A stretch of DNA of 64,000 nucleotides, from IMG/VR virus record IMGVR_UViG_3300028920_000060, positions 7,968 through 71,967 of that record, one strand, 5' to 3'. The DNA comes from a virus. Positions within the stretch are counted from its first letter, which is position 1; each line of letters opens with the position of its first letter. Of the stretch, positions 4,861 through 49,281 are shown one piece after another. The position numbers were made by a program, and so were the translations under genes. The notes beneath the pieces are model-generated. The model was not told the DNA's origin and made no database searches. It saw nothing but the letters and a program-made list of their open reading frames with translations.

Positions 4861-5404
4861 TGTTCACTTCATCGTCAAAAGTCATCTTAATAGACTTTTT
4901 AGTTATTTCTTCTACTTGTTTTTCATGTTCTAATCTACTAGTTTTAACCTCATTAACTTTTTCTCGTAATTCTTCCATATTTAGACTAAAATGAGGAGCA
5001 TTAGGAGACCCATCCACCATTTTGACTCCTAACAACTTTAATTGTTTTTGTCTATCTACTTCCATAGATTTTTCAATAATTGGATCCATATCTCCAACAT
5101 CATCAACAATTTCACCTCGAGCAAATGCTTCGGACACAGCATCAAATTGTTCGTCATCTAAAGCCTGTTGAGCATCAGATGTTTGTTTAATCTTTTCAAT
5201 CATCGTCTCAACAACTTCACGTCTACCCGTTAACATACTCAAAGGTATAATTGTGTCTTCATCTTTTTCTTTTAATAGATCTAAACCAAGCAATTGCACT
5301 AACATTTTCTCTATAGCTTTTAGAGAATCAATTGCAAAGTTAGTACGTTCTTCCTCTTTCTTTTGTAGTGCCTGATACTCCCAAAGCCATTGGGCTTTGG
5401 TCAT
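4853..5404 (-). CDS. Tail assembly chaperone, T (frameshift) portion
   Basis: Starts MTKAQWLWEY, a motif typical of chaperone T segments; lies in the -1 frame of the upstream chaperone and is open back to the slippery site at 5491-5497. Confidence 0.7.
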   Translation of the reverse strand: MTKAQWLWEYQALQKKEEERTNFAIDSLKAIEKMLVQLLGLDLLKEKDEDTIIPLSMLTGRREVVETMIEKIKQTSDAQQALDDEQFDAVSEAFARGEIVDDVGDMDPIIEKSMEVDRQKQLKLLGVKMVDGSPNAPHFSLNMEELREKVNEVKTSRLEHEKQVEEITKKSIKMTFDDEVNNG

Positions 5405-5973
5405 ACATCTGATGTCTGGGCTGCTGGCGAGGACCCCTTTTCTTGCGAGGACGTAACTTTTGATTTCCCACCAGGGGTCCTCGCCGATGATTTTTTTAAT
5501 TTATCCCAGGATTCATCTCTACGTTCGACTAATTTAGTATAATTAGCCCAAAGTTCTTTAGTTAATTTACTTGAACGATCTCCAAGCCATAACATCAACT
5601 GATTCATAACCCAATATCGTTTACGATATTGAGATGCACTATGATACTCGATATCGGCCTTTTCCATCTCATCAGAAAATTCAAAAAGTTCTTCAACGGG
5701 AGTACCATCAATAGCTTTAATAGATGCAGCTAATCTAGGTACCCTTAAAGAAGAAAAGGCAGAGATTTCACTACTCATATTACAATAAGAGTCTGCCCAT
5801 ACTTCTTCATCAGAAGTTAAAGTACTCATACGATATTTATTACCCGCAACTTCGAAGGTATCGTCAATTTCCATACCTCCGATCTGCGTGTCAATATCTT
5901 GTAATAATTTGTGGCGTTTTGCTACAGGAATTTTTACTGTTTCGTTCTCTTTTGCTTTGTCTTCTTCAGCCAT
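5401..5973 (-). CDS. Tail assembly chaperone (G)
   Basis: 190 aa acidic protein between tube genes and tape measure; LAASIKAIDGTP motif. Confidence 0.75.
   Translation of the reverse strand: MAEEDKAKENETVKIPVAKRHKLLQDIDTQIGGMEIDDTFEVAGNKYRMSTLTSDEEVWADSYCNMSSEISAFSSLRVPRLAASIKAIDGTPVEELFEFSDEMEKADIEYHSASQYRKRYWVMNQLMLWLGDRSSKLTKELWANYTKLVERRDESWDKLKKSSARTPGGKSKVTSSQEKGSSPAAQTSDV
5426..5497 (-). promoter_or_regulatory. Programmed -1 ribosomal frameshift signal (A AAA AAA plus 13-bp stem)
   Basis: Minus strand TTA AAA AAA at 5491-5497, a 5-nt spacer, then a perfect 13-bp inverted repeat (5473-5485 with 5426-5438). The -1 frame reads IIGEDPWWEIKSYVLARKGVLASSPDIRC into MTKAQWLW with no stop. 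Confidence 0.8.
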
Positions 5974-6011
5974 TTTTGGCCTCCTTCAAATGAAGGGTAA
6001 GGGGAAACTAC

Positions 6012-7107: not shown

Positions 7108-7584
7108 CTAGGCAGTAGCCTTAGTTCTCTTAACGTACTCAAGCGTAGCGTTCGTATTAATAATACGGTCACCATCTGATCGATAATTTCTACCAATATT
7201 AGAGAACCAACAACCAGTATAAACCACCACTTCAGAACCACCACCATCTCTATCTGGGATAGTCCAAAGTTCTCTCACTTCAAAGGGACTATCCTGAAGT
7301 GAGAGCATCATAAGATCAGTGGTACCAAAAGCAGTTTCCATTCTGTCTACATAGATATCATATCTCTGGACAGCAATGGTTTGACCGGTGACATTGCCTG
7401 GCACCTTTTCAACAGGATCGCCAGAGAAAGTGCCACGATGATTCTCTGCAATTTGGTAAATAGGAGTAATGGTTCTACTAATAGTTGGGTTCCACCCGTT
7501 TACTAATCCGATAGTTACACCATTCGCTCTAATAGTTAGAGAGTGAGAAGTGCGAACTAAAGTCTCTGGTACTGGGAAAGCCAT
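7108..7584 (-). CDS. Major tail tube protein
   Basis: 158 aa immediately after the sheath gene, tube-fold motif pattern. Confidence 0.8.
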   Translation of the reverse strand: MAFPVPETLVRTSHSLTIRANGVTIGLVNGWNPTISRTITPIYQIAENHRGTFSGDPVEKVPGNVTGQTIAVQRYDIYVDRMETAFGTTDLMMLSLQDSPFEVRELWTIPDRDGGGSEVVVYTGCWFSNIGRNYRSDGDRIINTNATLEYVKRTKATA

Positions 7585-7614
7585 ATTTGACTCCTAGTGG
7601 CCTCTAACTAATTG

Positions 7615-10143
7615 TTAGGTACTAAAGAATGGATTATCAACAGAGAATTCACCGAAGAATCTAAGTGCCGGATATCTCAGGAAGAAGAAATACCGGAAGA
7701 AGAACTTAGTAGGATCGGTAGTACTCTGTTCTGCCTGTACGTCTCTAGAAAGATCGATGTCTCTCGAAACGCCATTAGCATCCCTAAATGGACCAATTGC
7801 ACCACTCTCAATAAGAGCAACTAACGTCTGACCAACAAACGTCTTAATATCAAAAATGAAGTCAGCTAAATCTTCTGGTACGATACCACGCAAGTTAGTA
7901 TCAACCACTCTCGAAACCGACCGAGTAACATTGTCCTTTTGTGAGGTTACCGATCTATACGAGAACTGCGGCAGATTACCACCAGCAACTTCAGTAGTAA
8001 CTGGATCAAGAATGTTAAGTCTGCCACCTTCCTGAGTAACAATTAATGTACCATTAGAGGCTAATTGAGCTCGTTCTGCTCTAACAAAGGTTGGGAAGGT
8101 ATTAACATCAAAACCAATAATTCTCTTAGAAGCTAGTGAAGTGGCAGGAGAGGTAAAGCTAGTATGTCTAGCTGCAACAGCACAAGCAACTGCAGTAGAA
8201 TCCAGATTTAACGTAGCCTCACTGCCATTTTCTAATGTGATTGTTCTATCAACACCAGTAGGTGCAACTAACAATGAACGACCACGTGCTGGGCTATCTG
8301 CAGCAACCTGTAAAGTCACTGCAGCACGATAAACAAAGGTATCTGGTGTATCAGCATCACCAATGAGAGTACCAACTGGCATACCATACCAACCGGTACG
8401 ATAGTTCTTCTCAGTAGGCGAGCTTTGATTCTCAATGTGAGAAAGCTGATAGGTCTGTACATTCAATCTAGTATCAACAGTCAAAACATCGGTAATGAGC
8501 GTAGACTGCTCAAGACCATCAATAGCATCCTTTGTCTCATTAACAGTAGGATTATTAGTAGAGGTAGCATCATCAATCTGACAAGTAAAAATAGAAGGTG
8601 CACCATTTTCAAATGCAATCTGACCATAAACAGATAAAGTATTAGTAGTAGAAACAGGACCTAAGTCCTGAATCATAGCATCTTCAGAGAAGAATCTCTT
8701 AGGCGTCTCGTATTCAGCAGTTGGACGGTCATACTCGTACGTAGCAAAATAGATAACACCAGTAGCTGGTGTAGAACCAGTACCAACTTCAGTGTAAGGT
8801 AACTGTCCAGCAGTCAAACCGAAAATAACAGTAGTAGCATCATTTGCAGTAGGAGCGGAAAATTCAATACTAGACGCAATACCCTCAACTGGACTAGTGA
8901 TTTTTACTTTACCACTACCATCATCAGCAGCAACACCAATATAATCAGGACCATAACCAGCAGCGACTGCTAGAACAGCATTAATATTATTTGCGATATT
9001 TGCGGCAGTAGAAGCATCACCAAGCGTGCCACCCATACCTGAATCAATAGTAAAACCAGGCACTGGCGCTACAGCTTGAATTAAATCAATTTCTACAGCT
9101 GCTTTACCATCTAATGCTATACTGATTGTATCGGTTTGCCCACCAGCCACGGATAAATCAAATGTTTCAGTTATAGAACCAGTAAAAGTAGCTGCAGTAT
9201 CTGGTGACCAATCAATATCTCCACCATTGAGTAAATAATCTGTTGGAGAAGTGAAACTAGTTACATTAGCAAAAGAACCAATACGAGTAAGCGCAGTTGC
9301 AGTTTGAGTTAGTGTGTCAGTAGTAGTGTCCGGAGACACATAATCAATCTCATATGTGGCACTAGCATCATACTGAGTAGCATCTATCTCAACAACAGTA
9401 GGTGCTAACGCTGGTGTAGTAAAACCAATACTAGCAGTTACATCGTTAGCAAAAGGTTCTAGAATTTGTACATCAGAAAATGGAGTAGTAATAGGGCTGG
9501 TAAAAGTAAGAACATTGGTAGCTTCTGTTACAACAGCAGCATAAACAGAACCATATCCAAGGGATAGACCCGCTGCGCTCGCTAAACCGGCATTAACAGC
9601 TGTGGCAACCTCATCTGCGGTTGCGGCTGCGCCAGCAGTAGAAAAACCATCCCATTTAATTTCGAGTAAAGTGCCAGTAGCAGTAGCAACTGGATTAGGC
9701 GTGGCAGCGGCATCATACTCAAGCTGAATAGTAATCTTTTGCCCACTATCCATCTTAAAGCCGAATGCTTTAGGACTACCAGCACTAACATTGATAGTAG
9801 TCATTACAGTACCAGTGAGTACTGCTGCTGGATAACTGATAAAGGTACTATCAATAACAGTTACTAATCCAGCGAGAGTGCGTCGAATTACAGTATTCGA
9901 CACACGTCGATCACCACGATTTGGAGTCAGAGTGTAGACATGAGGAGAAGAACCAGCAAAAGTAGCAGCCTCTTCAAGAATCTGTCCACGCTTTATTGCC
10001 TCATTAGTTGCTCTCTTCTGACGATTACCTACAGCAACAATAGCCAGAATGTCAGGCACAGTGGCAATAGAAATAGCTGCTGGCGTTACAACTTCACCAA
10101 TAATAACGCCTGGATCTACATAGCCGCTAATAGAGAGAGCCAT
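7615..10143 (-). CDS. Tail sheath protein with inserted surface domains
   Basis: N-terminal YVDPGVIIGEV and C-terminal sheath core (ITDVLTVD...YRTGWYGMP...FFFRYFFFLRYPALRFFGEF) typical of contractile sheaths; 842 aa. Confidence 0.9.
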   Translation of the reverse strand: MALSISGYVDPGVIIGEVVTPAAISIATVPDILAIVAVGNRQKRATNEAIKRGQILEEAATFAGSSPHVYTLTPNRGDRRVSNTVIRRTLAGLVTVIDSTFISYPAAVLTGTVMTTINVSAGSPKAFGFKMDSGQKITIQLEYDAAATPNPVATATGTLLEIKWDGFSTAGAAATADEVATAVNAGLASAAGLSLGYGSVYAAVVTEATNVLTFTSPITTPFSDVQILEPFANDVTASIGFTTPALAPTVVEIDATQYDASATYEIDYVSPDTTTDTLTQTATALTRIGSFANVTSFTSPTDYLLNGGDIDWSPDTAATFTGSITETFDLSVAGGQTDTISIALDGKAAVEIDLIQAVAPVPGFTIDSGMGGTLGDASTAANIANNINAVLAVAAGYGPDYIGVAADDGSGKVKITSPVEGIASSIEFSAPTANDATTVIFGLTAGQLPYTEVGTGSTPATGVIYFATYEYDRPTAEYETPKRFFSEDAMIQDLGPVSTTNTLSVYGQIAFENGAPSIFTCQIDDATSTNNPTVNETKDAIDGLEQSTLITDVLTVDTRLNVQTYQLSHIENQSSPTEKNYRTGWYGMPVGTLIGDADTPDTFVYRAAVTLQVAADSPARGRSLLVAPTGVDRTITLENGSEATLNLDSTAVACAVAARHTSFTSPATSLASKRIIGFDVNTFPTFVRAERAQLASNGTLIVTQEGGRLNILDPVTTEVAGGNLPQFSYRSVTSQKDNVTRSVSRVVDTNLRGIVPEDLADFIFDIKTFVGQTLVALIESGAIGPFRDANGVSRDIDLSRDVQAEQSTTDPTKFFFRYFFFLRYPALRFFGEFSVDNPFFST

Positions 10144-20899: not shown

Positions 20900-30852
<9,953 letters not shown>

Positions 30853-30855
30853 GTT

Positions 30856-32109
30856 TTACGCTCTAAAATATATATTTCTAAACAAGGCCCCACTAGGAGC
30901 GGCGGTAAGTAATGCGGCAAGTCTATAATTAGGACCGGTCTCTATATGTAGACTACCGCTGCTAACAAAGTTAAGCTTGAGCTGTGGTATCATCTTATCT
31001 AATCTCTGTGATAGCCAATTAAGATAGGATACCAACTGTGGTTGATGTTGAATAACAAATGCATTTCCCTGATCATTCCAACTTGGAATATCAGTATCAA
31101 TAGCAAATACTTGCTGACTCATAACGCCAGCCATTAAAGCAGCTTCAATAAGCGTAAATTCAAAACATGAATATGGATAGTTATCAAAACTAAAACAACC
31201 AGAAGGCTGGTATGCATTAATAACTTGCAAACCACCTTCAAGAAATGTGACCAGTTGTCCCTTACTATATCCTAAATAACAACTTTCATCCGGATTGCCA
31301 GAAGGTGTAACTAATTTTACAGCTTTATCAATTTGTAATCTTAATTTAGAAATTAAGGAACATACCTTATGTGATATAATTCTAACATTTACGCAAATAG
31401 TTTCCTCTTCTGTACCATCAGTACCACCAGTTAAAAGCGTCTCTGCGTACGCAGCAACAACACTAGTACCAGCGCTTGTTGGACCCAAAGCAACAGAAAT
31501 AATCTCAGCTGCATCCTCACTTGCAGTAGCACTAAACTCTGTAATAATATCATTAGCGATTGTAGTTATAACAGAACTACTATTTGTTGCTAAATTTACT
31601 TGTATCTTGGCTTCATCTCTTACAATAGAAAGTGTTTGATCAGGTGCTCCTGGATCAATATACTCAATAGATATAAAATTACCAGGAGAACCCGCAGTTA
31701 CAGCAGTCCATACCAATACTGAATTTAAACCAGTTCCAGGATCTACTGTTTCAGATGCTTTTACAGAAGCCACTGTCTTAGCACGCCAATTAAAGAGCAA
31801 GTCACGCCTCATTGTAGTCTTGTTCTTTTTATTGGCGTCAGAAGTAAATGCGTTATCTAAACCTAAAGGAAACTCATATCTGCCAATAGATGGATTTAAT
31901 ATTCTAGGTGGATTTGGAGTCCTATCATCTAAAGGTAAATAAACATCTTCTAAAATTTCTGAACCACATACATCAGTAATATGTAATGACAATTCTTCTG
32001 GATCGGCTAATACACCATTAGCATTTTTAAAAGATATACCTATATTTTGTGTTGTTCCCATCAACACTACTTCAGCATCTTGAGAACCAACATCAGGAAT
32101 CAAAGTCAT
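30856..32109 (-). CDS. Head-tail adaptor with inserted Ig-like and sheath-like domains
   Basis: C-terminal LISKLRLQID...YSKGQLVTFLEGGLQVINAY...LIEAALMAG adaptor-type helical pattern; central WTAVTAGSPGNFISIEY insert. Confidence 0.55.
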   Translation of the reverse strand: MTLIPDVGSQDAEVVLMGTTQNIGISFKNANGVLADPEELSLHITDVCGSEILEDVYLPLDDRTPNPPRILNPSIGRYEFPLGLDNAFTSDANKKNKTTMRRDLLFNWRAKTVASVKASETVDPGTGLNSVLVWTAVTAGSPGNFISIEYIDPGAPDQTLSIVRDEAKIQVNLATNSSSVITTIANDIITEFSATASEDAAEIISVALGPTSAGTSVVAAYAETLLTGGTDGTEEETICVNVRIISHKVCSLISKLRLQIDKAVKLVTPSGNPDESCYLGYSKGQLVTFLEGGLQVINAYQPSGCFSFDNYPYSCFEFTLIEAALMAGVMSQQVFAIDTDIPSWNDQGNAFVIQHQPQLVSYLNWLSQRLDKMIPQLKLNFVSSGSLHIETGPNYRLAALLTAAPSGALFRNIYFRA

Positions 32110-32372
32110 TACGTCTGTTCCTCTATTGGAGTGATCATTCCAGTTTCAGCATCAATTTGAACATTATTAATATCTAATCCCTTTTCATTCAGTTTGACAT
32201 TATACTCGTGTTTCCACATCCCTATTTGGAATTTTAGTAATTCTGAATTTGCTTGAGCCTCGGATATCATTGCTTTGTGTTTATCAATTCTTTCTTGTTC
32301 CAAACTCAATTTCAGCATAAGATTTTGCAATCTAAGCTGGTCCAACTCTTCCATTTTTTGTTTTAAGGCCAT
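32109..32372 (-). CDS. Small coiled-coil protein
   Basis: 87 aa, heptad-rich, AGGAGG SD upstream. Confidence 0.5.
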   Translation of the reverse strand: MALKQKMEELDQLRLQNLMLKLSLEQERIDKHKAMISEAQANSELLKFQIGMWKHEYNVKLNEKGLDINNVQIDAETGMITPIEEQT

Positions 32373-32450
32373 GGTTTTCCTGCCCTCCTAACACTAGTGT
32401 GTCAGGGTGTGTTAAAATAATCAACCTAGACATTAATTTAGCTATTCTAT

Positions 32451-32921: not shown

Positions 32922-33216
32922 TTAATCCTCTCTTCTCTAGGCCCTTTTGCAGAGCCTCTTTTTGCTTAGAGATTGCCTCCTCCGTTGCCTTAGCTTCCTT
33001 CTCTATTTCTACTGCACTAATTTCATTAGCCTCTGCCTTGGCCTTGGTAGCCGCCGCCTTTTCTTTAATATTAGCTACTTTGGTTTTTATTTGTAGTTCC
33101 AATAATAAAATTTCTAATTTCCTTCGTAGATTACCATTAATTCCGACGAGTAACAGTAAGGCTATGATCCCTACTGCTACTACGCCGAAAATAATCCATC
33201 TACCGTACTTTTTCAC
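32878..33216 (-). CDS. i-spanin-like protein (N-terminal TM + coiled coil)
   Basis: Probable GTG start at 33216 overlapping the holin TGA: MKKYGRW-IIFGVVAVGIIALLLLVGI, then a long coiled coil. Confidence 0.55.
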   Translation of the reverse strand: MKKYGRWIIFGVVAVGIIALLLLVGINGNLRRKLEILLLELQIKTKVANIKEKAAATKAKAEANEISAVEIEKEAKATEEAISKQKEALQKGLEKRGLNADEIADRLGNLGV

Positions 33217-33629
33217 TGAGGCTGGCCATTCTTCCAAGCAGTGGCAAATCCCTGCACAGCATCCTTACCAAGTTTGATACCAGCATAACCAAGCAAAGCA
33301 AACAATACATAAAGTTCGCTTTGACTAATTTCAGCATACTTGACTACAATTTCAACAACCTGTATTACTTCTTCTTTTACACCACCAACAGCAATAGAAT
33401 CGGCCGCAACAGTAGCCTCATTCTTGATTGGTTCTACAATTTCCCTGACGACATCACCCACCCTGTTCCAAATATACATACAGTGGGAAAACACAATCCA
33501 AAAAGAAACACGTCCAAGGGATAGTTCCCAACCACCATCTTTCTTTTCGCAGATGAGGCCACGAAAGCTTTTAAGTATAGCAAGACTAACCTTCTTCCAA
33601 GTCGCTACAGCAATCTCCTTAGTGGACAC
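33213..33629 (-). CDS. Holin-like membrane protein
   Basis: Probable GTG start at 33629; two TM segments (LSLGRVSFWIVFSHCMYIW; LYVLFALLGYAGIKLG), basic N-terminus, precedes spanin-like genes. Confidence 0.6.
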   Translation of the reverse strand: MSTKEIAVATWKKVSLAILKSFRGLICEKKDGGWELSLGRVSFWIVFSHCMYIWNRVGDVVREIVEPIKNEATVAADSIAVGGVKEEVIQVVEIVVKYAEISQSELYVLFALLGYAGIKLGKDAVQGFATAWKNGQPQ

Positions 33630-34024
33630 TACGCACCCCCTGGTGTTGCGGCTGCCATCATCCAAACATCTACAACTGCTGGAACTGCTGCGCTGTTGGT
33701 AATTACCAATTCACTTTTAAGAATAACTGGTAGAGATTCATCGTCAGGATGTTTTTTATTCAACCTAGTAGAAGGTCTCCATTCCTCAATAGGAACTTGA
33801 AATACTTTGTTAGGGGGTGCGGTATTCACAACTACAGCAGCACCATCATTTTCACCACCAAATTTAGGCTGTACACTAACATTAATTGTAGTGGCATATA
33901 CTTTAACCCAAGCACAGTAGTGTCGATATGGTGTACCAGACTCTAAAGTTAAAGTAGCACTATCAGCACCACCTGCAGCTTCTAACTTTATACGTCTGGC
34001 AAGCTCTAGATGTGTTACATTCAT
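33629..34024 (-). CDS. Hypothetical small beta-sandwich protein
   Basis: 131 aa ORF coupled to neighbours. Confidence 0.45.
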   Translation of the reverse strand: MNVTHLELARRIKLEAAGGADSATLTLESGTPYRHYCAWVKVYATTINVSVQPKFGGENDGAAVVVNTAPPNKVFQVPIEEWRPSTRLNKKHPDDESLPVILKSELVITNSAAVPAVVDVWMMAAATPGGA

Positions 34025-34026
34025 TA

Positions 34027-34968
34027 TCAGACCTGTGCTACAGAATCATCCTCATCATCCAACTCATGAGAGGCTAAATCTGCTGCCTGTTTTTGAGCCC
34101 ACTTCTTTACAGACTTGTAGTAGGAATGAGCTCGAATGTGCTCGTAGTCATCTAAGGTTAAATTGGGAATGTCCTGCAGTGATTCTAAGAGTTCAGCAGC
34201 GGGCATTCTTTCAGATTCTTCAATCTCAGCCTTGACCTGATTACAGAAATGTAGCACCCGAGGATTAATAACTTCATCCTCACCAACAACATCATTATGT
34301 GCTACACGATTACGCTCACCAAAACGAGCAGCACCACCAGGACCGGTCCCCTTTTCTACTACTTCGTGAATCGGCTCTGGAGAGGAAGCTGCAACAGGCT
34401 CTCTATAGTTTCTATCAGAAGTACGTCGACGCTTTTCTTCAGATGCATCAATAGCAGCATCAACGTCTGGTTCACCGTCGTTATTAAGCATATTGCTGCG
34501 CTTTGCTTTACCAGCAAAGTAAGCTTTATACTCTTCTTCAGTCAAAAGTTGGAGAGCCGGTGGACGCCGGCTAAGCATCTTTCTAAAATCCATAGATGCT
34601 TTAATAGCGTCAAAAGGAATAAATTGTGTAAGATTAACTGGATCTCTGTTGTTAGCAAACAGAAAACCTTCATTCCGATTTGGAGCTATCGGAAATTCGC
34701 ACGAAACTTGTGCGTTTGCGAGATTCTGAACATAAATATCTCGCTCTTCCTTGAAGAATTCAGTGAAGTTTCTAGGTACTGGCATAACTTTTCTTCTCCT
34801 GATTGAGGTAGCAGATACTGTTTTGAAGAGCATAATAGCAAAAGGTCGCCTCGAGTAAATTTTGGCTTTCTTCTCTCTCAGCAGCCTTCTTGCTCTCCCA
34901 GGATGTATATACTCCAAAAATCTCTTTTCGGAATCTACTACTAATACATCCTGAGTATGCTTGCTCAT
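34027..34968 (-). CDS. RRXRR/PLMP-domain fusion to a probable capsid-associated protein
   Basis: Residues about 7-47 (VLVVDSEKRFLEYIHPGRARRLLREKKAKIYSRRPFAIML) match the recalled RRXRR consensus (VLDK.GKPLMP.HPARARKLLK.GKAKV.RR.PFTI.L). An internal ATG at 34785 has its own AGGAG SD. No HNH or RuvC motifs. Confidence 0.65.
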   Translation of the reverse strand: MSKHTQDVLVVDSEKRFLEYIHPGRARRLLREKKAKIYSRRPFAIMLFKTVSATSIRRRKVMPVPRNFTEFFKEERDIYVQNLANAQVSCEFPIAPNRNEGFLFANNRDPVNLTQFIPFDAIKASMDFRKMLSRRPPALQLLTEEEYKAYFAGKAKRSNMLNNDGEPDVDAAIDASEEKRRRTSDRNYREPVAASSPEPIHEVVEKGTGPGGAARFGERNRVAHNDVVGEDEVINPRVLHFCNQVKAEIEESERMPAAELLESLQDIPNLTLDDYEHIRAHSYYKSVKKWAQKQAADLASHELDDEDDSVAQV

Positions 34969-35019
34969 GCACAGAGCAGCCCCTCAATCCGTTTGTGCTC
35001 TTGCCAAGAGCACGGGAAT

Positions 35020-35076
35020 TTAACCCACCATGTTCTGTTCTAACACCATGTTAGAAGGAACAGTGTATTTGCTCAT
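35020..35076 (-). CDS. Possible 18-aa leader peptide MSKYTVPSNMVLEQNMVG
   Basis: ATG at 35076 with AGGGAGAGG SD-like sequence; overlaps the 35031-35062 hairpin. Confidence 0.3.
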   Translation of the reverse strand: MSKYTVPSNMVLEQNMVG

Positions 35077-35101
35077 AACGAGCCTCTCCCTAAGGAGGTA
35101 A

Positions 35102-35139
35102 ATTCTAGTGGGTGGATGGTGGATTCCACCCACTAGAAT
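35102..35139 (-). terminator. 15-bp perfect stem-loop downstream of the 35145-35726 gene
   Basis: ATTCTAGTGGGTGGA / TCCACCCACTAGAAT with an 8-nt loop, only a short U tract. Confidence 0.6.
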
Positions 35140-35144
35140 AACAA

Positions 35145-35726
35145 CTACGAAGCCTTCAGAATCTTAATCCGAAGAGCAGAATCGACGATAGGGGTCGGAC
35201 TACCACCAGCAGTATAGACTAACGCGATCGAAATCTTGTCACCCTTAACTACAGTAGCTCCACCTTCATCGCCATAAAGAGTCTGACGCGCAGCAGTAAC
35301 CGTGGTATCATCAGCAACCAGAGCCGAAGCCAGGATGGATGAACCATTTACCAGAACGTCAAACGTCATGTCCTCACCGGAAGCGGGAAGAGCACCAACC
35401 TGAGCTTCGACAGAAATGGTGCCTGCCATATCAGCAGTACCAATCATAATCTCAGCCTGATTTGCAGCAGTTTCCTGCACAAACTCCATCAACTGGGAAT
35501 CGAGCAAAGACTCAATATCGCCAGCTTCCGCCACGGTGGAGATGGTGATCGTACCAGCAGCTACCAGCGTACGAATTGAACCAACTCTGTTCAGATCGTC
35601 AATCGTTACCCGATCCCCGACATCGACATAGCCACTACCTGGCACAGTCTCTCTGATGGTTTCTTCACCAACAGTAAAGTCAAGGGAAATAGGATCTGTC
35701 GTAGTATTGGTAATCAATACTTGCAT
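35145..35726 (-). CDS. Capsid-associated/decoration protein
   Basis: Follows the major capsid gene; N-terminal docking-type domain plus C-terminal beta sandwich; capsid-module codon usage. Confidence 0.5.
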   Translation of the reverse strand: MQVLITNTTTDPISLDFTVGEETIRETVPGSGYVDVGDRVTIDDLNRVGSIRTLVAAGTITISTVAEAGDIESLLDSQLMEFVQETAANQAEIMIGTADMAGTISVEAQVGALPASGEDMTFDVLVNGSSILASALVADDTTVTAARQTLYGDEGGATVVKGDKISIALVYTAGGSPTPIVDSALRIKILKAS

Positions 35727-35748
35727 TTCATTCCCTCACAAAACTTAA

Positions 35749-35790
35749 TAGACAGCTGGGCGTCAGAAATCTGACGCCCAAGCTAGTCTA
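35749..35790 (-). terminator. Stem-loop after major capsid gene
   Basis: GGGCGTCAGA (35758-35767) / TCTGACGCCC (35770-35779), extendable by imperfect pairing. Confidence 0.65.
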
Positions 35791-35798
35791 CCAATGTT

Positions 35799-37007
35799 TT
35801 ACTTCCGGCCCTTGGCTGCCGCTCTCGGGTTCGGGATACCGAAGCCGATGATCTCGCCAAACGCCCAACCCTTGACCAGACGACGATGGCTGAACATGTT
35901 GAAAGGCTCACTGAAGAGCTCAACACGAACACCCATCTCGCCGAGGTACTCACTGCCGGTGACGGCGTAGAAGGTACCCGCAGGCACGACTTCTTCAACA
36001 CCGGTACCAGCTGCAGTGATGATCTGAGCATTGAGGATGTTGCCGATGTAACCGGCGAGGATTAACTCGCGCTCGGTCACCGGGTCAACAGCCGCACTCA
36101 TCGTCTTCACAACGTCCGAAAGCTCAGCACGGTTGATGAAGTACTTCTCAACCATGAGGCGGTGACGCTCAACCTGATAGCGAACATCTTCAAACGCAGC
36201 AATACCGAGCGTAGTGAAGATGGTCTCGGAGTTTACGGTGACGGCAGCACGATCAAGCAGTGCCAGGCCGCGCTTATCCTCTTCGAGCTCAATCTCCTGC
36301 CGCGCAGTGTCCTGAGCACGATCGAGAACATCGTAATTCATCTGATAGATGTCTTCGATGTCCACGGTCGGGAAAGCGGTAACCTTGAACTCGGAAGGCT
36401 GAATGAATCGACCATGAAGTCGAGACTCAATGGACTGACCATCCTGACCAACCACCCAAGCGGTAGCACGAACATCCTTCGCAATGCGGAAGAGTTCGCC
36501 CTGAGCTAACGGACGGACACGATAGAGCTTGCGAGCCCAGCCCTCGTAATCCACGATGTCCTTGATCGGAAGCAGAAGCTCCTGACCAACAATCGCGAAA
36601 CCTTCACCAGTTGGATCAGTCATCGCCGCAGCGAGAACCTTACGCCGATCTTCGGCGTCCATTTGGTTAGAAGCTTCACGATAAAAAGTGCCCGGAGACG
36701 CTTTACGCGTAACGCTCTGAAGCAGGTATGCTACCTGCTGAAGGGCATCTTTATCATCGTAGGCATTAACTTCACCAGACTTATCGAACATGCGGTTCGA
36801 CAAATTGGTGTTACCAACAGCCTGACGAACGCCATCACGAGTAACCTCACCAGCATACGCGGTGGGGTTAAACTTGCCAGTCTCATCAAAATGCTGCTCA
36901 TCTTGCACACTGGCATGACGTTGGATGGTTGGGGTCTCTACACCCTTTGGCGGAGGCGTCGCCGCCCCAGCCGCAGCGAGGCGCTTATAAGGATTTACTA
37001 CGCTCAT
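35799..37007 (-). CDS. Major capsid protein (HK97 fold) with about 110-aa N-terminal propeptide
   Basis: GQELLLPIKDIVDYEGWARKL...FKVTAFPTVDIEDIYQMNYDVLDRAQDTARQEIELEEDKRGLALLDRAA...KGWAFGEIIGFGI; resembles recalled Bxz1-type capsids; located after protease and decoration genes. Confidence 0.9.
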   Translation of the reverse strand: MSVVNPYKRLAAAGAATPPPKGVETPTIQRHASVQDEQHFDETGKFNPTAYAGEVTRDGVRQAVGNTNLSNRMFDKSGEVNAYDDKDALQQVAYLLQSVTRKASPGTFYREASNQMDAEDRRKVLAAAMTDPTGEGFAIVGQELLLPIKDIVDYEGWARKLYRVRPLAQGELFRIAKDVRATAWVVGQDGQSIESRLHGRFIQPSEFKVTAFPTVDIEDIYQMNYDVLDRAQDTARQEIELEEDKRGLALLDRAAVTVNSETIFTTLGIAAFEDVRYQVERHRLMVEKYFINRAELSDVVKTMSAAVDPVTERELILAGYIGNILNAQIITAAGTGVEEVVPAGTFYAVTGSEYLGEMGVRVELFSEPFNMFSHRRLVKGWAFGEIIGFGIPNPRAAAKGRK

Positions 37008-37042
37008 CTTTTTCTCCTGTTAAATTGATTCATAACCTTAAA

Positions 37043-37069
37043 GAGTGGGCGGGTTACCCCGCCCCACTC
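37043..37069 (-). terminator. GC-rich hairpin between decoration and capsid genes (attenuator or mRNA stabiliser)
   Basis: GAGTGGGCGGG-TTA-CCCCGCCCCACTC with one bulge. Confidence 0.45.
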
Positions 37070-37083
37070 AGTACTGGGTTAGA

Positions 37084-37878
37084 TTATGGCTGAACCACAG
37101 GATCGCCACCAAGACGTACACCGAGGAAAGGATCATCGGCGGTCGGCAGCTGCATCACGTGACCAACAAACTCACCTTCAGTACTGTCGGTGGTGAAATA
37201 ACCAGCCAGTGCCGCAGTATTACCACCACAGTACAGGTTTTTACCAGCACCAGTCAGTGCGTAGTCGTTGCGGGAGGTGTCATACATCGAAGTAAACAGA
37301 ATCGAAGCATCGGTAATAACCGTGATTCTGTTGTCAGCGATGCTAACATCATCCGTGAAGTTGAAGAAGTTACGACCCTGGAAGTCCAGATCTCTGGTAG
37401 CCAGATCGTAAGTGTAAGTCACGTAGGTGGCAGCGCCAACTACGAGATTACCAGAGCCGGGGTTGATACGCGTAAGCGTGCCATTCGTTGCATTCAACGT
37501 GTAGTCAGTGGTTGCTACAAGAGCGGTACCACCCTGATCGGGAGCGGTGTTGGCCTTAACATTACTCACGTTCGGATGAGCAAGCTCCACAGTGGCGGTG
37601 ATCGTGGGGAACGTCACAACCTCATCCACCACCGCAGCAGTGTAGACGTTAGTCTTGTTCCACTTAGCAACGCCAAGCACCGGGCGACTGACCGCCTTGA
37701 TCAGGTTACCATCAGCATCCTGCGCCACCAGCATGCCTTGCTCGAAATCGGCAGCGTTAGCTGCACGATAAACGCCGACATCCTGGAGAATGACGCAACG
37801 ACCTAAATCCAGTCCTCTCGGAAATACATCCGATTGGAACGCCCCAAGACGGGGGCTATCTAATCCTACAGAACCCAT
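37084..37878 (-). CDS. Head decoration/cement protein
   Basis: Between scaffold and capsid genes; FEQGMLVAQD, RITVITDASILFTSMYD, VGHVMQLP..DDPFLGV. Confidence 0.7.
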   Translation of the reverse strand: MGSVGLDSPRLGAFQSDVFPRGLDLGRCVILQDVGVYRAANAADFEQGMLVAQDADGNLIKAVSRPVLGVAKWNKTNVYTAAVVDEVVTFPTITATVELAHPNVSNVKANTAPDQGGTALVATTDYTLNATNGTLTRINPGSGNLVVGAATYVTYTYDLATRDLDFQGRNFFNFTDDVSIADNRITVITDASILFTSMYDTSRNDYALTGAGKNLYCGGNTAALAGYFTTDSTEGEFVGHVMQLPTADDPFLGVRLGGDPVVQP

Positions 37879-37928
37879 TTTCTACCTCCATTGGTAGTTA
37901 ACGTTGTGGGGGGACGATGCCCCCGTCC

Positions 37929-40622
37929 CTATCGCCCAAGATTGGCTAAACCTGCCACCTTAGTTACACCAACAGCATCTCTAATAGCTGTACGTTTATT
38001 ATCAGTTTGAGGCTGCTGAGTAGTCTCAGTTGGATTCAACTGTAGATTTCCTTGCGTAGCAGCCTGCTTGAGTTGTACATCGCTAGCACTCGGTTGAAAC
38101 GCAGCTTCATCAAGCGGAACAGCAGCAGTCTTGATATTCTTCAAGTCTGCCTCTACTTGCATCAAAGTCTCATCATTCCAATTCATAACCGACGCGGCAC
38201 GTTCAATAATGCCATCAATGAACGCTTCCCACGCTGGTTTATCAGTACCTTCAATAATAGGATCAGAAAATGCAGCTTCTACAATAGTAACTGCAGTTTT
38301 CTGATCCATAGGGGCGTATTCATACCCATCACCAAGCGGCATCGGGTTACAAAGTGCAATCCCCATTGCCGTCTTCAATGGCGAATACTCGAGGTTGAGA
38401 GCTTGTCGCTTAGCGACAAGTTTAAGAGCACGGGCAAATCTATCAGCCATGTTGGTGATAAATTGCTTCTTCTCTTCCTCTAGTTCCGCGATTTTCTTCT
38501 CTAATCTACCCTTATAAAGCGATTCAATTCTAGCAGCGTGTTGCTTGATATCATATGAAGCAACTTCTGCCTTCTTATCTTTGTCCTTCTTCTTCTTTTT
38601 ATCAAGACATTCATCATCATCTGACATAGGACCAGTACCATCAGGCTTACCAGGGCCTTTAATCTTGCCAGCAGATTTCATATCAGTACTGACATCATCA
38701 ACAGCGCTCTGACTCAAACTCCAGTCCTTACGCTTGTCTTTCATGTCAGAATCCTTCATCTCGTTCACCGACAACTGATCAGGATTCCTGTCGTGTTGTT
38801 CATCCTCAAGATCAGTTTCACGATCACTCAAGGAGTCATTACTAAGAGATACAGTTTCATCGTATTCATCAGCACGATCAGAATCAGCACCATCACCAGT
38901 AGCAGTATCTTTGGCAGAACCAGGCTTATCTGCTAAATCAGAATCGCCTTCAGCAGAAGTTGGAGCACTTGGTTCATTCCGATCAATACCAGTCATATCA
39001 TCGTGATAATGCTGTAAAACCTGAGCAAGACGTGGACCAACAATGGCCTTCGTCATGTTAATAGCAGTTCCAATACCATACTGTGCGATGGTAGTAAGAA
39101 CTTTCTTAGCTAAATCCTCAGGACCGACGCTAGCAACCTTGGTAGTATCTACCCTATCAGGTTTTACTACAAACAAGGTACCTTCTGCATCAAAGATACG
39201 GACATTACCAGCACTAGTAATCTCCGCCTTTAAATGCTTGTATGACTCAGCAAAACGAAGCATAGGGGAACCTCCAGAGGTTTCTTTATTTCCACGTTTA
39301 GGCGGAGTAGCCTCAGGCCCTTCAATGCCCATGGCTGCCGGTGTTAACACACCACCGGGACCTGCCGGTGTTGCGCCTAATTCTTCTGGTTTCAATTCTT
39401 CAATAGGAGTTTTATTATCTAGTGAAGTTTCTTCTAATTCACTTGATTCAATTTCTACACCATCCGGTGTAGTATTAATGTTTATTGTAACGTCACCACC
39501 GCCCTTTTCTTCATCCATTGGTGGAGGTTCAAGACCTGGAGGTGGCATATCAGGGCCAGGTTCTGCAGAACCAGGACCAGGGAGGCCAGGTGGTGGAGGA
39601 GGCATCGGAGGGCCAGCTTGTGCCGCCTTCTGGAGCTTCTCCTCCACCCGCCTTTCGAGATCAGCAACCTTTTGGCTTAATATAAGTATGTCAGATTCGT
39701 TTTGGAGCTGATCATCGTTTAGCCGTTCACTGAGCTTTAAAATCTCATATTGCTCAGCTTTGGTGTCAGCTGGGTCATGTACACGACTATACTCATCGTA
39801 TATAACCCCCTCACACCACTCGAAAGCTCTGGCAGTTTTCTTAGTAATCTTAGCGGTTTTATCTTTACCGTATTCAATTACAAAGGCTACTGGATTAAAT
39901 CCAGGTTCAGACTCATCATAAGTCTTACCTTTGTTTTTAATATGAGCACAAAACTCGCCTCTGCTATATGCAACGTTATTACAAACATTGCATCGAGTAC
40001 GTAAACAAGAGCAGCCCATCGATCCATGTTTAAGGATGCCAGCTGTTACTGCTCGAGCGAAAGTGGGATCTTTTTTAGTATCAATAGCGACAAGAAGTTC
40101 TACAAATTCATCCTTGACTACATTACCGCATTTTCTACAGTGAATGCCAGTCTCAGGATCGCGACCTTCTTTTGATGCAGTTTTATTACCACAATTTGGA
40201 CATTCATCAAGAGGTGGCGTAGCATCATTGTAATGAGCGTCTACAATAAAACCTCTTGCATTTTTAGGATTTTCTGCTCTATGATTAATGTGATGCGGTT
40301 TATTTTCGTAAGTACGATAGACTTGTTTACCAAGACGCCCATCAAATCTTAAAAGTTCATGCTTATGAAAAGCATCCTTATTCTCATTAGGCACATTAGA
40401 TGTATTGCCTCTAATAGCCTCAAATATATAATCAGCAGGATTATCTGAAATATCGTATTCAGACGCCACAATTGCAAGTGAGGCTTTAATATCTATGGGC
40501 TTACGTTTATTTAAAAATTCGCTAGTATTTTCATCACCATAAGCTGCCGATTTTTGCAGCTTATCGTCTTCATACTCAGCGACAGATAAAGTCTGAACTT
40601 CAGCAGTTTTGATGAATGTCAT
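37929..40622 (-). CDS. Prohead protease fused to scaffold
   Basis: N-terminal protease (KPHHINH His region, GFIVDA, GSMGC serine motif followed by CxxC...CxH), a Zn-ribbon insert, then Pro-rich, acidic and coiled-coil scaffold segments. Confidence 0.8.
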   Translation of the reverse strand: MTFIKTAEVQTLSVAEYEDDKLQKSAAYGDENTSEFLNKRKPIDIKASLAIVASEYDISDNPADYIFEAIRGNTSNVPNENKDAFHKHELLRFDGRLGKQVYRTYENKPHHINHRAENPKNARGFIVDAHYNDATPPLDECPNCGNKTASKEGRDPETGIHCRKCGNVVKDEFVELLVAIDTKKDPTFARAVTAGILKHGSMGCSCLRTRCNVCNNVAYSRGEFCAHIKNKGKTYDESEPGFNPVAFVIEYGKDKTAKITKKTARAFEWCEGVIYDEYSRVHDPADTKAEQYEILKLSERLNDDQLQNESDILILSQKVADLERRVEEKLQKAAQAGPPMPPPPPGLPGPGSAEPGPDMPPPGLEPPPMDEEKGGGDVTININTTPDGVEIESSELEETSLDNKTPIEELKPEELGATPAGPGGVLTPAAMGIEGPEATPPKRGNKETSGGSPMLRFAESYKHLKAEITSAGNVRIFDAEGTLFVVKPDRVDTTKVASVGPEDLAKKVLTTIAQYGIGTAINMTKAIVGPRLAQVLQHYHDDMTGIDRNEPSAPTSAEGDSDLADKPGSAKDTATGDGADSDRADEYDETVSLSNDSLSDRETDLEDEQHDRNPDQLSVNEMKDSDMKDKRKDWSLSQSAVDDVSTDMKSAGKIKGPGKPDGTGPMSDDDECLDKKKKKDKDKKAEVASYDIKQHAARIESLYKGRLEKKIAELEEEKKQFITNMADRFARALKLVAKRQALNLEYSPLKTAMGIALCNPMPLGDGYEYAPMDQKTAVTIVEAAFSDPIIEGTDKPAWEAFIDGIIERAASVMNWNDETLMQVEADLKNIKTAAVPLDEAAFQPSASDVQLKQAATQGNLQLNPTETTQQPQTDNKRTAIRDAVGVTKVAGLANLGR

Positions 40623-46870: not shown

Positions 46871-48897
46871 CGTCTCCTGCTGTTATTTCCGATCATACGA
46901 TTAGGATTAAATAATCTACCCTGTCCACCCATTTGAAATTGTTGACCGCCCACTTCTTCACGTTTTAGTCTTGCTTCCCTCGAGCGCAGTTTAACACCAG
47001 TAGGCATGATTTGTGAATCTTGACACATTTTATGTAAATGAACTAAGACAACTGCAACGTCGTCAGAGTTATAGCCTCGTCGCTTACCCTTTTGCGGATT
47101 ATATACTTTCTTATCATCAATAGACCTCTCAAGGCGTTCTAATTCATATATACCCACACCTTGAGGAGATTTAAACGGCGGATCAAGTGCGTCATCTTCA
47201 ATATCTTTAGGAAGTAATTGAATACGGCCCATAAGAGCATCGGCAACGAATTTGATATAATCTTCAGCTTTAATCGACTTCTGTTCAGCGCGTACTCCAA
47301 GATTACGAATTTGCTGAATTAATGTCACGCTGTTCCATCTATCAAATTCCACCTGTGCTATCTTTTGAAATCCCTTTTGAAAATCAACTATATCGACACA
47401 AGAATCAAACCATACATCCATATCTTTAGATGGTAGAATACGCATTACCCAATCAACTACAGTTACGTATTCAACCTTGTCATCTGGAAGCTGTCTAATC
47501 TCTAAATGACCACATGCGCCAGCAAACGAGTCGAAATTCTGACCAGCATCAAAACAGATATACCGTGACATATCACGTTTTAGTTGACACTCGACCATTT
47601 GAGCTCGATGATATCGCTGATTAGTCTTATCTATAAATGGTATTATATCAATTTTAGCAGTGGGTTTAAGATTTTCTACTACTGCTATAGTCTCAAATCT
47701 TTGTGGGTCAATAACTAAAGGATTAGCTGCTAATGGTGGTTTAGCACCAAAGTCACGTTCAGTACCTACTGGATCTTTTTCAAAAGCTTCATCATAATAT
47801 TCACGCTTCTCCATAGGGTTGAATTCCCAAGTTGCATAATGGAAAGCGTACATACTTTTAATATTAGTAGAGGTATAAAGTAATTCCATCCCTTTATCAT
47901 CAATTGATATAGGAGATGAAATTGATACCATTAAACCAAACCACTCGAGCAAGTCTCTATTTAGTACTGCTGAACGCACAGTACGTAAAGAATTCTCCAT
48001 AACGCGGTAGGATTCTTCGGCACCTAATGAAGATTCAGTTTGTTTAAATCGTGAAATCTCATCAACAAAAGAACCAATACGAGTACGGCCAGCAAGACCA
48101 GAAGAGTTGGAGTTCTTTGAATTAAACTTTACTCCCATATGACCATTTTCAATTTCTCTTATGGTCTCTTGATATTTCCATCTCTCCATACCAGCTGGAG
48201 TATCTTGATTTTTCTCTTCTTTTTTAACCCATGTTACATATCGTTTGAACCAAGGAGAATCTGATCTAAAATTACGATAATAAGCCCAAATAGTATCATT
48301 AGACTGAACTTCAGTAGAAGCAATGTATGTAACTTCAAATGGCTGTTTAGGTAACAATCCAAAATAGGATGATAATTTACCATCCGATTCACTTAATGAG
48401 ATATTTATAAGTCTATGTTCTAAATATGCACCAATAAGACCAACCGTAGCGGTCTTACCAGAACGCATTCCTACAATACCGTGAAGCTGATTATATCTTT
48501 GAATTGCTCTATCAAGTAATAATTCTGTTCTAGTTAGACCACATTTAGGACAAACATCTTCTTTATATTTACTTGACCAAACCAATAATACTTCTGATTC
48601 TAAATAAGAACGTGGTTTATTCCAACAATCAATTGCCTCTGGTGTTAATGGGTTGCAGATAGGACAACGATATTGAAAGAAATCTCTCAATACCTGATAC
48701 TGTCTAGTGTATTCAAATAATGATGGAATATTCAGATATGCTGGACCAGAAACGAATTCAATAATATTAGGTGCTGGATTAGCTAAATAATCTTTATCAA
48801 TATCACGTTCTTTTTTCTTATTTTTGCTAGTTAGCGGCTGGACCAGCGCTTCCATCGTATCTCTAAGGCTACCGGCCCCATTTATACCTAATATCAA
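46864..48897 (-). CDS. terL: Terminase large subunit
   Basis: Walker A GIVGMRSGKT, Walker B SFVDEISRF, coupling motif SISSP, nuclease YICFDAGQNFDSF and NSDDVAV; N-terminal CxxC insert. Confidence 0.9.
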   Translation of the reverse strand: MILGINGAGSLRDTMEALVQPLTSKNKKKERDIDKDYLANPAPNIIEFVSGPAYLNIPSLFEYTRQYQVLRDFFQYRCPICNPLTPEAIDCWNKPRSYLESEVLLVWSSKYKEDVCPKCGLTRTELLLDRAIQRYNQLHGIVGMRSGKTATVGLIGAYLEHRLINISLSESDGKLSSYFGLLPKQPFEVTYIASTEVQSNDTIWAYYRNFRSDSPWFKRYVTWVKKEEKNQDTPAGMERWKYQETIREIENGHMGVKFNSKNSNSSGLAGRTRIGSFVDEISRFKQTESSLGAEESYRVMENSLRTVRSAVLNRDLLEWFGLMVSISSPISIDDKGMELLYTSTNIKSMYAFHYATWEFNPMEKREYYDEAFEKDPVGTERDFGAKPPLAANPLVIDPQRFETIAVVENLKPTAKIDIIPFIDKTNQRYHRAQMVECQLKRDMSRYICFDAGQNFDSFAGACGHLEIRQLPDDKVEYVTVVDWVMRILPSKDMDVWFDSCVDIVDFQKGFQKIAQVEFDRWNSVTLIQQIRNLGVRAEQKSIKAEDYIKFVADALMGRIQLLPKDIEDDALDPPFKSPQGVGIYELERLERSIDDKKVYNPQKGKRRGYNSDDVAVVLVHLHKMCQDSQIMPTGVKLRSREARLKREEVGGQQFQMGGQGRLFNPNRMIGNNSRRRW

Positions 48898-49238
48898 CCG
48901 CTTACCCTTGGAACAATGTTGGCAGGTACACTACTAACAACTTCAATATTCGATCTTTTGGCTTTTATTCTTCTAACATACTCATCATAGCTATTTACTA
49001 GTGCCTGATCAGCGATAAACTTAGTAGTCCACTTAATCTCACTTTCAGGCACCTCAAAAGTATGAAAAATCGGAGAAATACTTAAATTTACAGCACGTTT
49101 ATTTTGATCTACTACTTCTCGTATTATTAATGGATCTTTTACTTTAATTACAGGTTTTTGACAATCAGATAGTGCTTCACCTATGATTTGACGACCAACA
49201 TAGTCAACAAGTACAACGATAACTCTAGCTTTCTCCAT
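48894..49238 (-). CDS. Phage Sm-like protein
   Basis: VVLVDYVGRQIIGE...IKVKDPLII...LVNSYDEY..IKAKRSNIEV pattern of phage Sm-like proteins. Confidence 0.55.
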   Translation of the reverse strand: MEKARVIVVLVDYVGRQIIGEALSDCQKPVIKVKDPLIIREVVDQNKRAVNLSISPIFHTFEVPESEIKWTTKFIADQALVNSYDEYVRRIKAKRSNIEVVSSVPANIVPRVSG

Positions 49239-49281
49239 ATTAAGCCTCCAGGCCTCCTCATAATGAGGGTATTAACTCTCG

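Follow-up and report, generated by a model that had tools for sequence, protein, structure and literature searches.

The locus described here raises the question of why a gene lying behind the major capsid gene of a large phage should begin with a PLMP domain, the N-terminal domain of the OMEGA proteins IscB and IsrB, with no nuclease following it. The window, that is, the whole 64,000-nucleotide stretch analysed, belongs to an 84 kb virus record (IMGVR_UViG_3300028920_000060) which is about half complete, its complete relatives measuring 160-212 kb. Its minus-strand morphogenesis region runs in the order portal, protease, HK97-fold capsid, a 193-aa gene, a 176-nt gap and a 313-aa open reading frame (ORF), the last being present in single copy in the record and conserved in position among relatives. 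The capsid proteins of PaBG, Y3, Motura and phage G are distant relatives of the one encoded here, and the only named phage carrying the 313-aa gene over most of its length is Rctr197k, known from an enrichment culture. The gene and its parts are as follows.

35799-37007, minus strand: HK97-fold major capsid gene, which in most relatives immediately precedes the leader
34980-34985, minus strand: Shine-Dalgarno (SD) sequence GAGGGG of the long isoform
34027-34968, minus strand: long-isoform ORF, PLMP domain plus core, 313 aa; fused in frame in 51 of 64 non-redundant relatives
34786-34953, minus strand: PLMP domain plus linker (aa 6-61), IscB/IsrB-type fold, with the Pfam match at 34801-34947
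34796-34800, minus strand: internal SD sequence AGGAG, inside the IRRRK codons, 10 nt upstream of Met62 (34785)
34027-34785, minus strand: short-isoform or core ORF, 252 aa, a homologue of PaBG gp154
Within 34027-34785, minus strand: the core parts, namely a small alpha/beta N-domain (aa 64-160), a linker and a C-terminal helical bundle

Several features of the surroundings were also recorded. The 193-aa gene (35145-35726, minus strand), between the capsid gene and the leader, comes and goes, since it is missing there in the 90%-identical locus L001 and present in L006; its protein has no detectable homology to the core. A 2696-aa protein at 20900-28990 (minus strand) consists almost entirely of collagen-like G-x-T repeats. 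In locus L004 a TnpB-like 413-aa ORF is inserted directly after the core gene, an insert that its sister L002 lacks. The terminase large-subunit frame of genome G606 (contig C1; L186, L188) is 1090 aa long against 677 here and is split by an insert in an intein-like manner, and that of G607 is also longer, at 837 aa. Loci L110 (G001) and L111 (G002) come from genome bins assigned to Actinomycetes and Archaeoglobales, respectively, and are probably binned phage contigs.

A PLMP domain had been proposed for the first 61 residues in an earlier note made from the sequence, and aa 6-61 are confirmed as a real IscB-type PLMP domain. The Pfam RRXRR profile matches aa 8-56 with 34.6 bits (cut-off 25; E 2.3e-8), spanning only profile positions 1-49 of 174, which correspond to the PLMP part, and the match to the NCBIfam family guided_IscB is confined to the same stretch. 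An AlphaFold model of aa 6-61 overlays the solved PLMP domains of IscB and IsrB proteins with Z scores of 7.3-9.0, the best overlay being with HfmIscB (Z 9.0, rmsd 1.9 A over 54 residues), and the next sequence relatives of the domain outside its own family are mostly IscB proteins. The literal PLMP motif has diverged to FLEY, with L18, A26 and R27 invariant. As this motif packs on RuvC and RNA in IscB (PMC9640706), its drift would be consistent with the loss of RuvC. The statement that the rest of the protein holds neither HNH nor RuvC was likewise borne out, as the RRXRR and guided_IscB profiles and the fold comparison gave no RuvC or bridge-helix match beyond the PLMP part, and no HNH family matched the 313-aa query or its fused homologues.

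The core (aa 62-313) is homologous over its length to PaBG gp154 (hhalign 95%, E 1.8e-8); similar proteins occur in Y3, Lu11 and Motura (Y3_226 in Y3; Foldseek), and 48 of 72 members match phrog_17686. PaBG gp154 lacks a PLMP domain, and the gp154-type genes adjoin a primase and a resolvase rather than the capsid gene, from which it appears that the core is older than the PLMP fusion. The fold of the N-domain is common to a 588-aa Y3 protein and shows a weaker likeness to a Rhodococcus phage head fibre, and these likenesses hint at an accessory role of the core in the virion. Y3_225 (L168:2094-3860), the neighbour of the Y3 core homologue, has the same N-domain fold, suggesting that the two form a small paralogous cluster. 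Sequence and fold searches of the core against the PDB gave no clear match, the best reaching Z 4.3 with ribosomal L9-like and GINS B-domain folds, results that speak neither for nor against a GINS-like role in replication. PaBG gp154 is not among 14 Coomassie-stained virion bands, a shallow proteome that is unable to exclude its presence (PMC7412058). The labels "virion-like" and "docking-type" that the earlier note had attached to the core were not established. The genes following the capsid gene in PaBG, Motura and phage G had been guessed to be core homologues, and were ruled out.

The gene is likely to be translated from two starts. An SD sequence within the IRRRK codons had been noticed ahead of a methionine at 34785, and it is indeed found at 34796-34800; the public gene caller picked the resulting 252-aa form (P0002). 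Across 62 fused loci the internal start pairs with the anti-SD sequence at -5 kcal/mol or better in 60 (median -8.0), compared with 135 of 692 other in-frame ATG or GTG codons, in a scoring that took the best of several candidate starts and so favours the internal-start result somewhat. The upstream start is weaker, with a median of -5.4 kcal/mol. Because the strong internal SD is conserved among relatives, two products are likely, with the short one dominant, in agreement with the second, 252-aa isoform suggested previously. A check of the DNA behind the short database entries L044, L045 and L176 traced their length to the gene caller's choice of the internal start.

The N-terminal extension is conserved in related phages. 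A profile search returned 133 clusters (at 50% identity) with E < 1e-30, most of them with PLMP in front, and at the DNA level the domain is fused in frame to the core in 51 of 64 non-redundant loci and truly missing in nine. In two loci (L078:2560-2772 and L081:3974-4198) an intact separate PLMP ORF of about 63-66 aa lies directly before the core; these loci are not sisters in the tree, indicating two separate splits. L052, which has a frameshift and sits on a short contig, and L088, truncated where its contig ends, were counted neither as split nor as loss. The PLMP domain is under purifying selection, as observed between the window and L001 (dN 0.074, dS 0.76) and between L024 and L077 (dN 0.146, dS 1.26), and the pooled dN/dS is 0.27 for PLMP against 0.38 for the core, in a pool that includes saturated pairs. 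A 98/82 branch separates the phage PLMP domains from 25 IscB/IsrB domains (48 columns, unrooted), and the tree of the phage domains is congruent with that of the core, the same subclades recurring in both unrooted trees. A single capture, followed by vertical descent with losses, would be the history supported by these trees, within the limits of their being unrooted. The idea that the extension is a domesticated RNA-binding module, put forward in the earlier note, gains support from its conservation. One subclade (L016, L056, L060, L061, L068, L078, L081, L084 and L110) has the gene outside the capsid operon with a reduced leader, and in L084 and L110 of this group an AC-hairpin-AG element of the kind described below contains the GTG start within its 3' arm.

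The 176-nt gap upstream of the gene folds far better than shuffled sequences (z -5.0) and comprises the following elements.

35102-35139, minus strand: long hairpin that follows the upstream gene; it resembles a terminator but its T tail is short, and its sequence is not conserved
35084-35101, minus strand: leader hairpin A with flanks, TTAC-[C stem G]-AG, resembling the 3' terminal hairpin of omegaRNA; candidate PLMP site
35071-35083, minus strand: leader hairpin B, covarying; holds the ATG of an 18-codon micro-ORF
35031-35062, minus strand: leader hairpin C, a two-part stem after AC; second copy of the motif, degenerate here and canonical in several relatives
35014-35026, minus strand: leader hairpin D, GGG...CCC, nearly invariant in the close clade
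34995-35013, minus strand: leader hairpin E, covarying

Five hairpins are kept in 14 close relatives, where 22 of the 32 predicted pairs show compensatory changes. The leader of a distant clade consists of two hairpins and has 24 double-change cells, a number reached in none of 500 shuffles and also well above slid controls. In other clades the leader is down to one or two hairpins, and the gap measures about 80-130 nt in many relatives. The long post-capsid hairpin is found after the capsid gene in most relatives, and a terminator scan did not call the copy at 35102-35139. In a group of loci (the window, L001, L005, L006, L008-L010, L044 and L051) its loop TTCCACC is often kept while the stem changes freely. 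Hairpin A and its flank are tandemly duplicated in the closest relative (L001:4844-4883). The 18-codon micro-ORF in hairpin B was set aside, its ATG not being conserved among relatives. A promoter scan gave chance-level results, and an Rfam scan of 33000-38000 returned chance matches only, with no HEARO match at E<=1, whereas the HEARO model matches 13 of 20 IscB/IsrB loci used as a control.

The unit shared by these leaders consists of AC, a stem closed by C-G, and AG. It occurs in 40 of 57 PLMP-positive leaders (3.8 expected), in none of the nine leaders without PLMP and in 9 of 28 IscB/IsrB leaders (2.2 expected), the strict form being missing in 17 of the 57 PLMP-positive leaders, including most of one relocated subclade. 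Since this motif was defined after looking at the data, controls were added: the unit is present in 9 of 105 other intergenic regions, AC/AG ranks first among 256 flank pairs (47/57; median 10), and among six held-out loci four carry the strict form and all six carry it when any two bases are allowed before AC. In eight of the IscB loci whose HEARO model ends on the AC linker, the model is directly succeeded by a short hairpin and then AG, GG or GT, and in the other six an extra hairpin is inserted before the short one. A covariance model of the phage motif gave no significant match at IscB 3' ends (best correctly placed E 0.18), so that the proposed homology between the leader and the omegaRNA hairpin rests on pattern and position; the same model (R2) was too weak within the phage family as well, giving few matches in other clades. 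Structural studies have shown that PLMP binds the 3' tandem hairpins of omegaRNA and that in IsrB it contacts the SD sequence (PMC9581776; PMC9640706). Autoregulation through the upstream hairpins, which the earlier note had offered as a possibility, may be regarded as supported by the conservation and covariation of the leader.

A genome scan placed the AC-hairpin-AG unit before four other genes of the morphogenesis region, which are listed here as candidate trans sites.

49254-49272, minus strand: site before a 114-aa gene (48894-49238), itself ahead of the terminase large subunit gene
32385-32410, minus strand: site before an 87-aa gene (32109-32372)
7602-7622, minus strand: site before a 158-aa virion structural (tube-like) gene (7108-7584)
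5981-6000, minus strand: site over the SD sequence of a 190-aa gene (5401-5973), after tube-like genes

At three of these sites the SD sequence falls in the 3' arm and flank of the unit, and at the site before the 158-aa gene it lies just downstream. The AC flank is found on four of seven start-proximal C-G/AG hairpins in this genome (P 0.0025) and on 6 of 20 in G605 (P 0.003), some of which head doubtful ORFs; the enrichment is not significant in G604, G606, G611, PaBG or Motura, and reaches significance in two of five PLMP-positive genomes. As the 3' half of the motif resembles an SD sequence, hairpins that occlude one will match it above chance. The comparison of orthologues is a stronger test of the trans sites than genome-wide enrichment.

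In that comparison, the site at the 190-aa gene is kept in 8 of 10 PLMP-positive genomes (this genome, G604, G605, G607, G609, G610, G611 and G612), with different stems, across orthologues of 28-51% protein identity, three of the sites having one mismatch or a larger loop. Rctr197k has a long variant and G606 a version without the AC flank, and the site is absent in both PLMP-less genomes, G613 and G614, two controls only, one of which is AT-rich. The site before the 114-aa gene is present in G603, G604 and G605, all three relatives with a readable leader; that of the 158-aa gene is clear in G604 with looser variants elsewhere, and conservation of that of the 87-aa gene was not seen among the relatives compared. 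The distant clade has a trans site followed by a second small hairpin of the GAGC-GAAA-GCTC type, as in its own leader, which suggests that leader and trans sites may change together. The presence of the same hairpin at other morphogenesis genes points to a putative regulon rather than a local loop.

On balance it is probable that the domesticated PLMP domain regulates the translation of its own mRNA and of other late mRNAs. An ancestor of the phage family would have captured the 5' end of an IscB/IsrB element, comprising the 3' terminal hairpins of the omegaRNA and the PLMP coding region, and this piece would have landed in frame ahead of an existing gene whose own start stayed. To judge from SD conservation, the core would be made mostly from the strong internal start, the weaker upstream start yielding the long isoform in minor amounts or, in certain lineages, a free PLMP peptide of about 65 aa. 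By analogy with the IscB/IsrB structures, PLMP may grip the base of AC-[C stem G]-AG hairpins; candidate sites of this type are present in the leader of the gene itself, and others overlap or closely precede the ribosome-binding sites of several morphogenesis genes. Binding would most likely stabilise the hairpin, hold the SD sequence closed and lower translation, and activation is also conceivable. Negative feedback on the long isoform could result, and the pre-terminase, tube-like and 190-aa proteins could be adjusted in timing or ratio. Being translated from the message just behind the capsid gene, PLMP could report late transcription and, as a dose sensor, tune low-copy assembly proteins. 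In IscB, the contacts of PLMP with the hairpin are mainly sequence-independent (PMC9640706) and the domain is braced by RuvC and TI (PMC9581776), so that PLMP by itself may bind RNA weakly.

The chances seem evenly balanced for the broader proposal that PLMP and the omegaRNA terminal hairpin form a portable protein-operator pair, here serving a translational regulon that coordinates packaging and tail genes through a minor isoform whose parent protein is unrelated. Such a pair may have been recruited more than once. The ESM Atlas holds a 56-member Chloroflexota QueH cluster with RRXRR in 86% of its members and, among viruses, a 103-member cluster of 122-aa proteins with RRXRR alone, both of which are possible independent PLMP recruitments.

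A narrower reading would confine PLMP to its own leader, where it would limit the long isoform or readthrough beyond the post-capsid hairpin, the other hairpins being ordinary SD-occluding stems. This is rather unlikely, even with leader evidence far stronger than the trans evidence and a motif whose 3' half is SD-like, because the AC flank persists at orthologous trans sites whose stems have changed and whose proteins share 28-50% identity, and neither PLMP-less genome has it; PaBG, for its part, also has the flank on 3 of 28 start-proximal hairpins, as ordinary stems would predict.

Somewhat less likely again is a tether, in which the long isoform would link a small RNA derived from the leader, or hairpin-bearing mRNAs, to the place where the core acts, such as the capsid or an assembly site. 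The fibre-like likeness of the core N-domain and the elaborate five-hairpin leader of the close clade would suit this role, as would the retention of the in-frame fusion in 51 of 64 relatives, yet PLMP has been split from the core twice and stayed intact, which indicates that the fusion is dispensable, and the leader of other clades has no more than one or two hairpins. Tethering of an RNA to the capsid, one of the functions considered in the earlier note, is weakened by these two splits and by the PaBG homologue, which is encoded within a replication region and was not found in the 14 virion bands (PMC7412058).

The hairpins might also act without PLMP, in processing, as attenuators or as sites for host proteins, with PLMP being a protein-interaction domain on the long isoform. 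PLMP resembles the N-domain of IF3 (PMC9581776) and might accordingly contact ribosomes or proteins, and one subclade keeps PLMP without the strict motif; nonetheless, motif and PLMP are present or absent together (40/57 against 0/9), and the motif is the very element that flanks PLMP in IscB loci, making this reading very improbable. That the domain is a neutral relic of an IS200/IS605 IscB insertion, the other origin once proposed, is rejected as hardly credible. Decayed IscB stubs are common and upstream starts weak in many loci, which would suit a relic, but the open frame and conserved domain persist in relatives down to about 30% identity, dN/dS is well below 1 and the leader carries compensatory changes.

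The regulatory reading, if true, would add a new domestication route for a Cas9 ancestor, through its smallest RNA-binding part and not through a dead guided nuclease. It would also provide a natural test of the putative PLMP control of IscB/IsrB expression through the SD-bearing hairpin and of the role of PLMP apart from RuvC, and it supplies candidate operators by which a large uncultured phage family may control its late genes; should binding prove specific, a domain of about 55 aa and a hairpin of about 20 nt could serve as a compact laboratory RNA tether. No description of PLMP domestication was found in a literature search whose coverage of subscription papers was sparse, and the conserved domestication reported here is apparently undescribed.

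The closest known system is IscB/IsrB OMEGA (omegaRNA = HEARO, RF02033), with which the locus has in common the PLMP fold and an RNA encoded directly upstream; an AC-hairpin-AG element just before the PLMP start resembles its counterpart there by pattern and position. In the IsrB study, the hold of PLMP on the terminal hairpin with its SD sequence was put forward as a possible control of expression (PMC9581776; PMC9640706). Unlike those proteins, which have RuvC, a bridge helix, HNH (in IscB) and a TI domain, the phage protein lacks all of these, and its locus has neither the full HEARO-like omegaRNA scaffold of 200-400 nt nor a guide. IscB/IsrB are mobile elements, whereas the phage gene is fixed and vertically inherited, with hairpin copies at other genes. 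IshB, which consists of PLMP plus HNH, likewise lacks RuvC, but it is a nuclease protein and no HNH is present here. Judged on RuvC, HNH, scaffold and mobility, the phage protein is not IscB, IsrB or IshB. The uncharacterised jumbo-phage family of PaBG gp154, Y3_226 and the Lu11 and Motura proteins is homologous to the core over its length; its members stand without PLMP beside primase and resolvase genes, whereas the protein described here is fused to PLMP and follows the capsid gene.

Domestication of an IS200/IS605 nuclease system into a gene regulator is a feature common to the TldR proteins, described in a preprint as TnpB-derived RNA-guided repressors (bioRxiv 10.1101/2023.11.30.569447). 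TldR keeps the whole dead nuclease and its guide as a DNA-targeting transcription factor, whereas the phage locus retains only an RNA-binding domain of about 55 aa and one hairpin, with mRNA as the proposed target. Phage translational repressors such as the MS2 coat protein, T4 RegA and gp32 bind hairpin operators in their own and other mRNAs, and the proposed binding of PLMP at translation-initiation regions of its own and other phage messages would be similar. Operator-type hairpins are conserved at translation starts here, as judged by a post hoc motif that overlaps the SD sequence and by two negative controls. Fold and origin are unrelated to those of the MS2 and T4 repressors, the putative regulator in this phage family being a minor N-extended isoform derived from a transposon.
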